Source: Candidatus Jordarchaeales archaeon
GTDB lineage: Archaea > Asgardarchaeota > Jordiarchaeia > Jordiarchaeales > Freyrarchaeaceae
DNA length: 7,653 nucleotides
Direction of reading: 5' to 3'
Assembly (NCBI GenBank): GCA_038858525.1
Contig: JAWCFL010000013.1
Coordinates: forward strand, 40,764-48,416
Part shown: piece by piece, positions 1,652 to 7,653 of the stretch
How positions within the stretch are numbered: the stretch's first letter is position 1
Layout: every line of letters begins with the position of its first letter
Program-made: the position numbers and the translations under genes
The notes under the pieces: generated by a model
The model's database searches: none
Seen by the model: only the letters and a program-made list of their open reading frames with translations
What the model was told of the DNA's origin: nothing

Positions 1652-1810
1652 CCCGTAACCCCTCTCGCGAAGGGACTATTTAAAATAAAGCGTGTAGTCT
1701 TCCTTTTAAAAAGGTATCCTTAGCATGATGCATCCTTTTTGAGACGGGTGCTGTTTTAGCCGGATGCGATGCAAACATTAATAACTGGGTTGCGCACAGT
1801 TTAGTGTGAG

Positions 1811-1818
1811 TTTAAAAA
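1811..1818 (+). promoter_or_regulatory. Putative TATA box (TTTAAAAA) for the Zn-ribbon/abfD-like unit
   Basis: TTTAAAAA begins 25 nt upstream of ATG 1836, the typical archaeal TATA-to-TSS distance for a leaderless or short-leader transcript. Confidence 0.45.
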
Positions 1819-1835
1819 ATAAATTGGTGTCTCAA

Positions 1836-2165
1836 ATGCCGCAGGAAGAACAGACGAAGAACATGCCATCCAAGGTTTACGCTCCCCTAGGCACTAGGGG
1901 GAGAGAAGCTATCTCCATAAAGGAGTGCCTCAAGTGTGGAGGCGAGAACACCGTTGAAGTCGTGGATTTTAGCAGCAACGACGAAACCTCAGGGGAAAAC
2001 ATACTCGAAACCCTAGACTACACTGTAAAGTGCACCAAGTGTGAGGAAACATACGTTGTCAGGGTAAGGTCAATGTACCTTGAAGACAAGAAAGAGGAGA
2101 ACAGACTCGTATCCACGGTCTTCATAGTAGAAAACAACCAGGAGTACTGGCTTGGAGTACTTTAA
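1836..2165 (+). CDS. Hypothetical Zn-ribbon protein (CxxC-x31-CxxC)
   Basis: CLKC...CTKC pairs in a beta-rich acidic protein, with codon style matching its neighbours. ATG 1836 is preferred over GTG 1806 because the TATA-like box lies between them and GGTG precedes 1836. ATG 1863 is also possible. Confidence 0.7.
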   Translation: MPQEEQTKNMPSKVYAPLGTRGREAISIKECLKCGGENTVEVVDFSSNDETSGENILETLDYTVKCTKCEETYVVRVRSMYLEDKKEENRLVSTVFIVENNQEYWLGVL

Positions 2166-2241: not shown

Positions 2242-3669
2242 GTGAGAACCCCTGAAGAGTACCGGGAAAGTTTATTCAAAATGAAGCCCAACATTTACCT
2301 TGAAGGAAAAAGGGTTGGAAGAGACGCTCCGGCGCTTCAAGGAGGAATAGGCGTCATATCTAAGACGTTCGAGCTAGTGGACAATCCGGAATTCAAAGAC
2401 CTGCTTGTGGCGACATCCCACATAACGGGAGGAAAGATAAACAGGTTCACTCACGTAAACCGTAGCCCCGAGGACCTCCTCAAGAAGCAAGAGATGATAA
2501 GGAAACTCTGCCACCTCACCGGAGGATGCATACAGAGGTGCATGGGATGCGACGCTATAAATGCTCTCTCCGTCATAACATACGAGGTTGACCAAGCCTT
2601 CGGAACAGACTACTACAAGCACTTCCTCAAGTACCTTGAGTACTTCCAGAAAAACGACCTCGTAGCTGCCGGCGCCCAGACCGATGTTAAGGGGGACAGG
2701 AGCCTCAGGCCGCACCAGCAAAAAGACCCAGACCTTTACGTGCGCGTGGTAAAGAAGACGGATGAGGGCATAGTAGTTAGAGGAGCAAAAAACCACATAA
2801 CCATGGCTGCCTACGCGGATGAAATCATAGTGCTACCAACAAGAATAATGACGAAGGAAGACGCAGACTGGTCAGTTTCCTTCGCCATACCAGCCGACAC
2901 GGAAGGGGTCAAGCTCATCACTAGGGCCTCTTCCTTCAGGCCGCGGAAAAAATTCAAGGCGCCCATAGCTGAAATAGGCTCAACGGACTCGTTCGTCGTA
3001 TTCGAGGACGTTTTCGTTCCGTGGGAGCGAGTCTTCCTCTGCGGCGAGTGGCAGTTTGCAGGGCTACTAGCACACCTCTTCGCCTTGTTCCACAGGCATA
3101 GCTATACCGGATGCAAGCCAGCACTATTCGATATACTCATGGGGGCAGCCGCACTGGTAGCAGACTACAACGGGGTGGCGGACAAGCCTCACGTCAGGTC
3201 GAAACTCGCCCACCTGGTTAGCCTAAGCGAGCTAGTCTACGCTGCAGGGATAGCTTCAGCCGTTAAGTCGCAGACCTATGGGTCAGGAACATGCGTGCCA
3301 AACGTAGTCTACGCAAACGTTGGCAGGAGACACGCAGGACTAAACGCCCACAACGCAATAGAAATCCTAACAGACCTCGCAGGAGGACTCCCAGCAACGT
3401 TGCCCTACGAGGAGGAATTCATAAACCCTGAAACAGCACCTCTAATGGAGAAATACATAGCCAGACGCTCAGAGGTCCCACCAGAAAACGTCCACCGCTG
3501 CTTCAGAATGCTCTCCGACATGCTGTGCTCCTCTCTGGGAGGAGTCATGGCGGTCGCAGACGTCCACGGAGGAGGCTCCCCCGTAATGGAGGAGATAGCG
3601 ATAATGGCAACATACGACATAGAGGAAAAGAAGAAAATAGCAAAATACCTCGCGGGAATAAAAGACTAA
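2242..3669 (+). CDS. abfD: 4-hydroxybutyryl-CoA dehydratase / vinylacetyl-CoA isomerase (AbfD)-like [4Fe-4S]/FAD protein, HpaB/4HBD superfamily
   Basis: 475 aa. Motifs INRFTH, GGCIQRCMGCD (C96, C100), QTDVKGDRSLRPHQQ.DPDLY, GIVVRGAKNHIT, VVFEDVFVPWERVF, HRHSYTGCK (H284, C291) and HGGGSP. All four cluster ligands of 4HBD are positionally present. The symbol denotes the family; exact substrate is unproven. Confidence 0.85.
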   Translation: MRTPEEYRESLFKMKPNIYLEGKRVGRDAPALQGGIGVISKTFELVDNPEFKDLLVATSHITGGKINRFTHVNRSPEDLLKKQEMIRKLCHLTGGCIQRCMGCDAINALSVITYEVDQAFGTDYYKHFLKYLEYFQKNDLVAAGAQTDVKGDRSLRPHQQKDPDLYVRVVKKTDEGIVVRGAKNHITMAAYADEIIVLPTRIMTKEDADWSVSFAIPADTEGVKLITRASSFRPRKKFKAPIAEIGSTDSFVVFEDVFVPWERVFLCGEWQFAGLLAHLFALFHRHSYTGCKPALFDILMGAAALVADYNGVADKPHVRSKLAHLVSLSELVYAAGIASAVKSQTYGSGTCVPNVVYANVGRRHAGLNAHNAIEILTDLAGGLPATLPYEEEFINPETAPLMEKYIARRSEVPPENVHRCFRMLSDMLCSSLGGVMAVADVHGGGSPVMEEIAIMATYDIEEKKKIAKYLAGIKD

Positions 3670-3961: not shown

Positions 3962-4333
3962 GTGAGTGAGCTGCAGCCGGCGCTTAAGGGCATAATAACG
4001 ACAGTTAAGAGGTCTTCGCCGAGTATTCATTCGATCTTCGTGATAGACCAGGAGGGAAATGTCTCTTCGGCTTCAGATCTTCCGCCAACTTCTTCTGAAT
4101 TTCCATTTTTCTCGTCTTTGCTGTCAATCGCCCAACGAATAGCGTCAGGATTCGATTTAGGAGAAGTTAACCATGTTTTCCTAGAAGGAAAAGACAAAAG
4201 CATAATACTCATGAAGGCGACTGACAAAAGCAGTATTGTTGCACTCGTGGAAAGCAACGTGTTTGTCCCCCAAGTGCTCGTTGGCCTTAAAATGATCGCA
4301 AGCTACCTCGAATCCCTTGAAGAGTCTAAATGA
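3962..4333 (+). CDS. Roadblock/LC7 (MglB-like) domain protein
   Basis: 123 aa with the roadblock layout: N-terminal helix, IHSIFVIDQEG (vvd.dG), SSLLSIAQRIASGFDLGEVNHVFLEGKDKSIILM (a...L..G.l..v.ie...g.i.l), SIVAL, C-terminal helix. GAGGA lies just upstream of the GTG. Confidence 0.8.
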   Translation: MSELQPALKGIITTVKRSSPSIHSIFVIDQEGNVSSASDLPPTSSEFPFFSSLLSIAQRIASGFDLGEVNHVFLEGKDKSIILMKATDKSSIVALVESNVFVPQVLVGLKMIASYLESLEESK

Positions 4334-4536: not shown

Positions 4537-6039
4537 GTGAGTTATAACCACGTTACGCCCGACATAGTTAAAACGCTTGAAAGTATAGTGGGGAAAGAGT
4601 ACGTTTCAGCAGACGTAGCAATGAGGCACAGCTACCTCTCAAGGGGCATAATGGGGCTCGAAGCGACAACGCCTGAAGTAGTAGTAAGGCCGAGGTATGT
4701 GGAGGAAGTGCGGAAAGTCCTCATTCTCGCAAACGAAAACCACATACCTGTAACCCCCGCTGCAGGAGGATTAAGCGGCGGTTACGCGGCACCCCTCATT
4801 CAACCCGGAGGAATACTATTAGACCTCTCACGAATGGACCGCATAATAGAAGTTAACACCGACGCTAGGTACGTTGTTCTCGAGCCGGGAGTAAGGAGCG
4901 GCAAGGTCTGGGCGTACTTCAGAAAGGCAATGTGAAATTGCCCTGAAAAATACTACCCAGACTGGGCGCCCCCGGTTCCCGACGGCGCACCGCCAGCTGC
5001 AACCGTGGTAGGCGATGCTATTGAAAGAGGATTCAGCATGGTAACCGCAAGATATGGTCCACAGGCAGACATGGTTCTCGGCATGGAGGTCGTCCTTCCC
5101 ACAGGCGAAATAGTCAGGACGGGGAGCTGGGCTCTGCCTGGAGCAAAGCCCTTCTACAGGTGGGGTCTGGGGCCAAACTTCGACGGGCTCTTCTTAGGGT
5201 CCCAAGGAACAATGGGTGTCGTCACAAAGCTAGCCATAAAAATAGTTCCCCACCCACACTACAAGACGATAGTTGCCTACGGCATGGACAACCCATACGA
5301 CATGCAGGACTTCACGCTGGAAGTCTCCAAGTACGAGCTCGGCATAGCGGACCACCTAGTGATGGTTCAGGGAGGAAACTGGCCGCTCGTCATGACTAGG
5401 TGGCCGAAAGAAAAGGTTCCAACAGACTACGAGTTCTACAAGAAGCTCGGCATACCCCCATGGTGGATGAACTTCGAAATATGGTGTCACAGCAAGGAAG
5501 AGCTCGACTTCACAGTCAACAAGATACATGAGCTAGCTAAGGAGTACAACGCTAAAACCGGGCATGAAATAAAGGAATGGAAGCTGCACCCCAAGCAGAT
5601 AGCCAGCAGGCTCAAGAAGCCCAACAAGATAGCCATACCCTACTCGCTGTGGAAGGCTGGATTCCTATTCATCACGTGGTACACGCCTTGGAAGGATTGC
5701 GCCGAGTTCGCCGAGATCTACAACCAGAAGCTTGAGGAGTACGGGTTCCCGCCGGTAATGTGGATAGCTAGCATTGACCACTGCAGGCAAGCTATATGCA
5801 TGCCGATAGTTTGCTTCGACTACACTAACCCGGAAGACGTGCAACGCGTGCAGGAAGTTAACCGAATCACTACGGAGATATTCCTGGACAAAGGATGGTT
5901 GAACTACAGGCCTGACCCATACGTGCACGCTCCACTAACATTCGCCAGGGCGAAAGCGTACTATGACCTGCTCGTAAGACTGCGAAAAGTCATTGACCCC
6001 AACATGATAATGCACCCAGGCAGACTAGCAATGCCCTAA
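4537..6039 (+). CDS. FAD-binding oxidoreductase, VAO/PCMH/GlcD family; join(4537..4924,4949..6039), 492 aa after removal of a 24-nt intron
   Basis: Exon 1 has the FAD_binding_4 N-half (PEVVVRP...V.KVL.LAN...IPVTP..GG.SGG, GGILLDLSRMDRIIEVN.DARYVVLEPGV). Exon 2 continues in the same frame with YYPDWAPPVPDGAPPAATVVGDAIERG, YG...DMVLGMEVVLPTGEIVRTGS, DGLFLGSQGTMGVVTK and the C-terminal IDPNMIMHPGR. The two track ORFs are complementary halves of one domain in the same frame. Confidence 0.88.
4925..4948 (+). other. Putative 24-nt bulge-helix-bulge (EndA-type) mRNA intron
   Basis: Central 4-bp helix TCAG(4919-22)/CTGA(4943-46). 3-nt bulges AAA(4923-25) and AAA(4947-49), each 3' of the helix on its strand. 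Inner stem GGCAAT(4926-31)/ATTGCC(4937-42) with loop GTGAA containing the in-frame TGA. Outer pairing T4918-A4950, GTA/TAC and GTCTGGG(4906-12)/CCCAGAC(4956-62). Cuts after the 2nd bulge nucleotide give ...TTC AGA A|AA TAC... = FRKYYP, in frame. Confidence 0.8.
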
Positions 6040-6234: not shown

Positions 6235-7023
6235 TTACTTGGAGGAGAAGTCTTGTTTTTGGATGTTTTCAGCGTATTCCATCATCGCCTTCCAGTGCCG
6301 AAGCGTGTGGAATGATACTTTTAGCAGCCTTAGGTTTCCAAACTTATCGGCAGCCCTCTTCCTATACCTCTCGAAGCAACGTCTAAGTGAGCTGAGACTC
6401 CTATAATGACTAAATATTTTTCCCCGTTTCTGGGCAGCTTGTTCAACATAGCTATTACTTTTCCGTGATTTTGAAGGCTCCCGGGTGTCCCTTTTCCGGC
6501 ATTATGGTTACTATGCCGTTCTCGAGGTTTATGTTAACCGATGCTGAACCCATTTAAGGTTGAATATTTCCCACTTGCTCCCGTCTCTTTTGCCATTTGG
6601 AGAAAATTTGCTACATATTTATTGCATGAGGCTATGAGGTCATCAATTTCCCTCTCGAGCAGTATGAAGGGAAACTTCTTTGGAGGTTTATAAGACGGTC
6701 TCTCCCACTGAATACCGGCCCACCTGGCCCATAAGTCATATGTGTAAACCATTGCTTCCTTCCGGGCTTCGCTCCAGCTCTGGTTTGCGATAACTTCCTT
6801 CACGCTCTCTGGATCAAAGAGATTTGCGCCGAGCTTTATAAGGCTCCTTAGTCTTCTAACTCTATCAGTTATTGTGCTCTTATAAACCATCTTTCTTCAT
6901 CCACCAGAGGGAACTCTAGAATCTTACTCTGTATGTCGCCTGTTTTCTGTGTGGCCCCCGCAGCCCGGCTTTCTGCATCAGTCTCCTCCACTAGGGCCTG
7001 CACAGCCCGGCCAAGTTTTTCGC
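6235..7023 (-). pseudogene. Degraded tyrosine recombinase/site-specific integrase (archaeal XerD-like family), multiple frameshifts, C-terminally truncated
   Basis: Minus-strand fragments in different frames join into one integrase: AKNLA / ETDAESRAAGATQKTGDIQSKILEF / LWWMKKDG / YKSTITDRVRRLRSLIKLGANLFDPESVKEVIANQSWSEARKEAMVYTYDLW...KKFPFILLEREIDDLIASCNKYVANFLQMAKETGA / EIFNLKWV / NINLENGIVTIMPEKGHPGAFKITEK / IAMLNKLPRNG / KIFSHYRSLSSLRRCFERYRKRAADKFGNLRLLKVSFHTLRHWKAMMEY. The HxLRH motif is at 6295-6309. No LGH...T..Y segment follows. Confidence 0.85.
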
Positions 7024-7260
7024 CAGGTTCACTCCCCAACACGGTGGCTCCCTGTGAGGTTGCGCTGGGAGGCATATTCCGCAGGTGCTCAAAGCCAACC
7101 TCGATGGCTCTAATGTCAAGAAGTATACGTTGAGCAATGCCTAGGTCTTTCATCATAACATTATATTCGACTGGGAAATCGCCTATTAATGGTGGTTGTA
7201 GCAAAGAATTAATTCTAATAAGCCCACCCATTATATTCTGACGTTCCTCATTAATTTGGT

Positions 7261-7653
7261 TTAGATTGTGTCGGGTTTGATACGCGTTAAACCCGGCACT
7301 TTATCGTATGCTTTGTCGAATGAGATTATTTTTCTATCTAGGCTTAGTGCTGTCGCAGCATAGTGAGAATCGAAGAACGAGAGGTTTAATGTCTGCCTTA
7401 AATATACGCTTGCAACTGCTGTATCAGGGGTTAATGGCACATATTCTACATGCGGCAAAGCCGCCAAGGCCGCTAAGTCCCTCAGAAGCCTTTCTTCCAT
7501 CCTCTCGCTTCTATAAATTAGCTCCATTTCAATCAGGCTAACGCTTGAGATGTGAACACTTATCTCTCCTTCCTGAAGTTTCCTAAATATTCTCTCCGCA
7601 ATAGGGTGATTGGGATCATACTCGTTTAGATAGGCGAAGATAACGTCATTTTC
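7261..7653 (-). CDS. vapC: PIN-domain ribonuclease, VapC-family toxin; 5' end just outside the window
   Basis: The frame is open from the window edge: ENDVIFAYLNEYDPNHPIAERIFRKLQEGEISVHISSVSLIEMELIY...VPLTPDTAVASVYLRQTLNLSFFDSHYAATALSLDRKIISFDKAYDKVPGLTRI. Acidic PIN residues (END, E of LIEM, FFD, SFD) are present. The track ORF 7261..7527 is only the C-terminal part. Confidence 0.88.
   Translation of the reverse strand, partial: ENDVIFAYLNEYDPNHPIAERIFRKLQEGEISVHISSVSLIEMELIYRSERMEERLLRDLAALAALPHVEYVPLTPDTAVASVYLRQTLNLSFFDSHYAATALSLDRKIISFDKAYDKVPGLTRIKPDTI

Follow-up and report, generated by a model that had tools for sequence, protein, structure and literature searches.

The window examined here is a 7,653-nucleotide stretch of one contig from a Candidatus Jordarchaeales genome (G000, C13:40764-48416; coordinates given without a contig label are window positions), an Asgard archaeon by its closest named relatives, which are Jordarchaeia/Freyarchaeota. 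Its forward strand carries a gene for a FAD-linked oxidoreductase that starts with GTG at 4537 and whose reading frame is closed by a TGA at 4933-4935, codon 133; the same frame is open again after this triplet, up to 6039. We read the gene as two exons on the plus strand: exon 1 (4537..4924; 129 codons plus 1 nt), which holds the N-terminal part of the FAD_binding_4 domain, and exon 2 (4949..6039), which holds the remaining FAD domain and the cap domain and ends with TAA at 6037-6039. Databases annotate the gene as two proteins, of 132 aa and 333-344 aa. The FAD_binding_4 match (PF01565, E 1.9e-25, residues 46-196 of the read-through) runs across the intervening DNA, 12 homologues are without exactly these 8 codons, and the spliced product aligns gap-free to intron-less orthologues. 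The closest PDB structures are PCMH/VAO relatives (E 2e-35 to 1e-24); by these matches the spliced product is a VAO/PCMH-type flavoprotein, distantly related to the solved enzymes. The dN/dS ratio is 0.038-0.048 in exon 1 and 0.015-0.039 in exon 2, and values of 0.015-0.05 in both exons indicate purifying selection, so the gene is no pseudogene.

Upstream lie an HpaB-family gene (2242-3669) and a Roadblock/LC7 gene (3962-4333); some relatives (L058, L059) have no Roadblock gene in the interval that separates HpaB from the flavoenzyme. In a sister family (L066, L067) the flavoenzyme follows a gene related to the small one at window positions 1806-2165, and the gene 3′ of the flavoenzyme bears Fe-S and CCG domains in L067; in the window, a CCG partner of the flavoenzyme is not adjacent. 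The end of the window (6534-7653, minus strand) holds a PIN-domain gene and apparently two fragments of one integrase-like gene.

The DNA between the exons has the anatomy of a canonical BHB intron. In the predicted fold a 4-bp central helix, formed by the strands TCAG (4919..4922, plus strand, invariant in five of five orthologues) and CTGA (4943..4946, plus strand), separates two 3-nt bulges on opposite strands, both AAA, at 4923..4925 and 4947..4949. Flanking it on the outside is an exon-exon helix with arms at 4906..4918 (98% of cells paired over five orthologues) and 4950..4962, and on the inside the intron hairpin, 4926..4942, made of a 6-bp stem (4926-4931/4937-4942) and the 5-nt loop GTGAA (4932-4936), in which the in-frame TGA is located. 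The 61-nt region folds with -26.1 kcal/mol (z -5.59), and none of 200 shuffles was equally good. According to PMC2738675, cleavage falls between the second and third bulge base; this rule places the predicted cuts after 4924 and after 4948, defines an intron of 24 nt (4925..4948, plus strand), a multiple of 3, and restores the frame. Base 4948 is A, C or G among the orthologues and 4949 onward is conserved, which fits 4948 as the last intron base and the predicted 3′ cut. A second TGA, within CTGA at 4943-4946, is out-of-frame and imposed by pairing to the exon. The original prediction, which described a 3n intron with an in-frame TGA in its hairpin loop, thus holds in every feature it had seen, and in silico removal of 4925-4948 bears out the two products it named: 492 aa with no internal stops when spliced and 132 aa when unspliced. 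A stop in frame also turns up in 43% of shuffles of this 24-nt intron; the lone stop is unremarkable, and only comparison with orthologues and with other introns lifts it above chance.

The exon-exon helix of 4906-4962 persists after splicing and is partly present in intron-less orthologues (L004, L008, L011), which suggests that the intron inserted into the loop of a hairpin already present in the exon. A search of the G000 genome for the intron sequence turned up no other copy, and hence no donor.

An insert occupies this one site in all five genomes of the family, with lengths of 22, 24, 27, 29 and 36 nt, and it is absent from all 6 sister-family genomes and from the other Asgard loci recovered. 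Given this distribution, gain in the ancestor of the family is most likely. Further contigs carry repeats of the five variants. Through five orthologues of five lengths, 99% of the BHB pairs are kept and the loop varies freely in both length and sequence; in the intron hairpin there is one compensatory change, U-A to C-G in G004, and covariation alone is not significant (92/500 shuffles). The original prediction had proposed checking whether orthologous introns keep a stop, and they do, at one codon position and with all three stop codons: codon 133 is TGA in three variants (G000, G001 and G002), TAA in G003 and TAG in G004. Two of the orthologous introns are frameshifting, and their genes would depend on splicing even without a stop, yet the stop is retained. 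Two annotated proteins of 143-144 aa (P0139, P0143) were considered as stopless variants and rejected, having merely longer annotated N-termini; L066 is intron-less, and L067 has a 1-nt frameshift elsewhere. We are highly confident that the insert at 4925-4948 is a real intron.

The cutting and joining of the flavoenzyme mRNA are predicted from the precedents of cbf5 and of tRNA. G000 encodes two EndA subunits (two PF01974 genes) and RtcB. A broad-specificity (alpha-beta)2 EndA type with an L1 loop has been reported for Asgard (PMC5829648). ARAGORN finds only 10 tRNA genes in this 93% complete genome, most of them intron-bearing, which suggests many multi-intron tRNAs and agrees with a published report that tRNAs of Freyarchaeia are rich in introns (PMC11291895). 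A junction pattern allowing 0-60 nt matched three metagenome contigs, all unspliced; no close full-length or junction-spanning protein and no spliced contig was found in the collections searched, which are mostly DNA.

The flavoenzyme is one of many intron-bearing genes. After orthologue comparison we accepted 17 intron sites in G000, so that at least 16 other genes carry such an intron. Two routes led to these sites, a genome-wide BHB scan and a homology scan that is blind to stops, the latter added because the BHB scan detects frame-breaking introns only. In the homology scan, ORFs from 680 kb of G011 and 520 kb of G021 (outgroups, both partial) were aligned to G000 with an intron-aware aligner. 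Some 133,000 codons were compared in this way, or roughly 20-25% of the coding genome, and the true number of introns is thus probably several dozen. By names assigned from motifs, not by family search, the interrupted genes comprise EF-2 (G000 C4:81118-81146, plus strand), aIF5B (C1:147521-147549, plus), eL42 (C1:178227-178256, plus), cbf5 (C1:177182-177211, plus), GatE (C2:68773-68802, plus), DnaG, a Kae1-like gene, ppsA, PIMT, HypD, and NuoD-like, PflX-like, PHP-like and AIR-synthase-like genes, together with an ATP-grasp gene, a conserved hypothetical gene and the flavoenzyme. The cbf5 intron, located in the codon that follows the GTL motif, is common to all 11 genomes of the order that were searched. 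The PflX-like and Kae1-like introns fold poorly in prediction, and their registers could be shifted by a few nucleotides. Of the further candidates, C2x and C5y were discarded as alignment artefacts, and two scan matches proved to lie antisense to the introns of EF-2 and DnaG and not to be new sites. On the minus strand of C1, at about 112600-113250, the alignment of one helicase-like gene shows several frame breaks of 10-26 nt without hairpins, which reflect a decayed gene or alignment noise.

Introns come and go in this order. A methyltransferase/ATP-grasp fusion gene of G000 contains one of 30 nt with a relaxed BHB and no stop (C1:199508-199537; L132, L145), which none of the 9 relatives recovered has; being confined to G000, it is probably young. 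The 50-nt NuoD-like BHB intron (C2:about 3086-3135, minus strand; L137), likewise confined to G000, appears from its distribution to be a second recent gain. Conversely, clean absence relative to close relatives is seen in EF-2 of G003 and G004 (L178, L179), in aIF5B of G004 (L278) and in eL42 of G006 (L174), which points to precise loss or patchy gain, that is, to turnover. In the sister family, EF-2 of G005 (L185) has a 217-nt insert at or near the intron site, either a long intron or an assembly artefact, which we excluded from all counts.

The stop codons of these introns follow a rule. We compiled 97 distinct variants of the 17 sites from 11 genomes; for each site, as many as 10 relatives supplied orthologues. 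Among the 3n variants, which come from only 10 sites picked by eye from alignments of non-independent relatives, 24 of 25 have an in-frame stop, compared with 4/25 and 7/25 in the other two frames. Weighted by site, the in-frame fraction is 0.90 versus 0.22 and 0.33 off-frame (random-frame permutation p 0.002), and shuffling gives an expectation of 0.35. When the three sites that had been found via their stop (FAD, GatE and AIR-like) are left out, the rule holds for 12 of 13 3n variants at 7 sites (p 0.02). With the last 3 nt of every intron ignored, p is 0.016 for all sites and 0.07 for the unbiased set; part of the signal stems from the T-AA with which these introns commonly end and which provides some of the stops. 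The sole 3n intron variant without an in-frame stop is the ATP-grasp insert of G000; some 150 related loci that we mined yielded no other stopless 3n hairpin insert. In the flavoenzyme and in GatE the identity of the stop codon changes and its position is kept, and in the PflX-like, ppsA, AIR-like and cbf5 genes 3n variants with a stop have close non-3n sisters without one. Selection for stops in 3n introns is supported statistically. Lengths divisible by three make up 14 of 48 site-length classes, where 16 are expected.

In-frame stops are also enriched, less strongly, in the non-3n variants, which break the frame even with no stop and of which 44/72 have one, against 28 and 25 with stops in the other frames (p about 0.02); weighted by site the fractions are 0.64 versus 0.39 and 0.36 (p 0.02-0.03, and 0.006-0.02 without the last 3 nt). 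This enrichment fits descent from 3n ancestors and also another cause, such as early release of ribosomes.

As to why such selection should exist, we favor, with moderate confidence, the idea that the in-frame stop is a lineage-wide fail-safe against translating unspliced message and not a switch for this enzyme. The transcript of the flavoenzyme gene would fold into the BHB, the two-subunit endonuclease would cut after 4924 and 4948, and RtcB would ligate the exons into the message for the 492-aa flavoprotein. Translation can presumably begin before splicing, and some ribosomes would then meet the unspliced message; these would terminate at codon 133, releasing a fragment without the rest of the FAD domain. 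If the stop were missing they would carry on to a full-length protein that has 8 additional residues adjoining the conserved FAD-binding loop. Most introns of the set interrupt conserved motifs, which suggests that insert-bearing products are likely to be dead and possibly harmful. Selection would on this account maintain stops in nearly all 3n introns of the order, much as in the short introns of ciliates. A wider proposition follows these lines: in Jordarchaeales the tRNA machinery splices many mRNAs, and these archaea already obey a eukaryote-like premature-stop rule for unspliced messages, hence exercise translational quality control in a prokaryote that has neither nucleus nor spliceosome, perhaps with decay of the terminated message. 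We offer this more tentatively, as a proposal whose chances we put slightly below even. A genome search with the Upf1 profile PF09416 gave no match, a result to be read with the fact that the control likewise matched nothing anywhere.

The main rival to the fail-safe holds that the stop serves splicing itself, by keeping ribosomes off the 3′ half of the BHB and off exon 2 so that the structure can refold and be cut. Clearance of this kind would account for the enrichment in non-3n introns and for the stop kept in both frameshifting variants of the flavoenzyme intron; in stopless non-3n variants, moreover, the first stop, judged by raw position alone, mostly lies no more than about 50 nt from the 3′ cut. 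A ribosome ending at 4933 should, however, still sit over most of the hairpin, to judge from the usual footprint. Several introns, in ppsA, DnaG, the Kae1-like gene and the sister-family PIMT, get by with no internal stop, and enrichment is the stronger in 3n introns. We regard ribosome clearing as rather unlikely. A neutral origin, in which the stop arose by chance in an A/U-rich loop and was simply passed on to descendants, has in its favor that shuffled introns of the flavoenzyme variants contain an in-frame stop 31-47% of the time and that three of the five variants are identical in their first 12 bases, leaving only about three independent states. It does not readily explain why off-frame stops stay at chance level when 24 of 25 3n introns have one in frame, or why in the flavoenzyme and GatE the codon varies and its place is constant, and we consider it very unlikely.

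The original prediction had gone further than its observations, proposing that the intron ties the output of this flavoenzyme to EndA/RtcB capacity or to temperature. The part of that interpretation that stands is that the enzyme depends on splicing and that EndA and RtcB are encoded; the gene-specific switch or thermosensor does not find support. Intron and stop are indeed kept in all five family members, and a negative-regulator role has been proposed, not shown, for the cbf5 intron (PMC2738675). But at least 16 other genes are splicing-dependent, including the core genes EF-2, aIF5B and eL42, so that the dependence is normal here and nothing special to the flavoenzyme. The sister family has the flavoenzyme gene without the intron, the loop is free to vary, and introns turn over among close relatives, as those of EF-2 and the NuoD-like gene do. 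A thermosensor would require a marginal structure, whereas the BHB of the flavoenzyme is predicted to be among the most stable of the 17 at 65-85 °C, in the top three, with a helix probability of 0.97, 0.92, 0.80 and 0.59 at 55, 65, 75 and 85 °C by nearest-neighbour prediction only. A switch thus seems quite unlikely to us. That no splicing occurs, with the gene expressed by selenocysteine read-through or ribosomal bypass, working as a two-piece enzyme or decaying as a pseudogene, would agree with the two annotated proteins and with the failure to find a spliced transcript in what are mostly DNA collections. Read-through is excluded by TAA and TAG in orthologues and by the two frameshifting variants. 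Bypass of the T4 gene 60 type calls for matched take-off and landing sites, but here the landing triplet differs (AAA, CAA, GAA) and the stop lies three codons past the junction, not next to the take-off. A second piece restarting at GTG 5005 would lose the conserved stretch around the PDG loop; the low dN/dS of both exons speaks against a pseudogene, and the preservation of the BHB pairs speaks against all of these. We hold the absence of splicing to be highly improbable.

A lineage near the root of eukaryotes thus probably has dozens of such introns, and nearly every 3n one contains an in-frame stop. This makes Jordarchaeales a living test case for the old question of how cells with coupled transcription and translation handle introns in coding genes, and for whether selection on premature stops predates the nucleus and nonsense-mediated decay. 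There is a practical consequence as well: genes with these introns are annotated as broken pairs, such as the 132 and 333 aa proteins at this locus, and Jordarchaeia proteomes are misread as a result. The narrower claim of a thermosensor for one enzyme, besides being unsupported, would matter less.

A BHB intron in the cbf5 pre-mRNA was reportedly described by Watanabe in 2002. For Desulfurococcales and Sulfolobales, it is treated in Yokobori 2009 (PMC2738675), and a word search of that paper finds no mention of stop codons or of frame in the introns. The flavoenzyme intron resembles it in being a short BHB within coding sequence with the same cut rule, a variable inner part and a two-subunit EndA. 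It differs in that it resides in a metabolic flavoenzyme gene of an Asgard archaeon, with splicing predicted, that its BHB is canonical where that of cbf5 is relaxed, and that its genome, which has a cbf5 intron as well, contains at least 17 such introns. In Haloferax, HVO_1309 has a BHB intron in its 5′ UTR, and the spliced form is reported as the major product (PMC7714728, PMC10485636); there too an mRNA is a substrate of the splicing endonuclease, as we predict for the flavoenzyme, but the HVO_1309 intron lies outside coding sequence and the one described here interrupts a reading frame. These two, cbf5 and HVO_1309, are the archaeal mRNA substrates of the endonuclease that are named in the literature searched, and that literature, in which few subscription papers were included, has no report of coding-sequence introns in Asgard or of a stop rule for archaeal introns. 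The protein itself shares the FAD_binding_4 domain with p-cresol methylhydroxylase, vanillyl-alcohol oxidase and eugenol oxidase, to which it is a distant relative. For the stop rule, the closest parallel is found in Paramecium and other ciliates, whose short spliceosomal introns, about 25 nt long, are enriched in in-frame stops when their length is 3n, so that retention ends translation, in connection with NMD (PMC5014332, citing ref. 20). Unlike the ciliates, Jordarchaeales would use EndA in place of a spliceosome and have no nucleus, their 3n lengths are not clearly depleted, and the link to NMD is one described for the ciliates. What the two share is an intron size of about 25 nt and the enrichment of in-frame stops in the 3n class.
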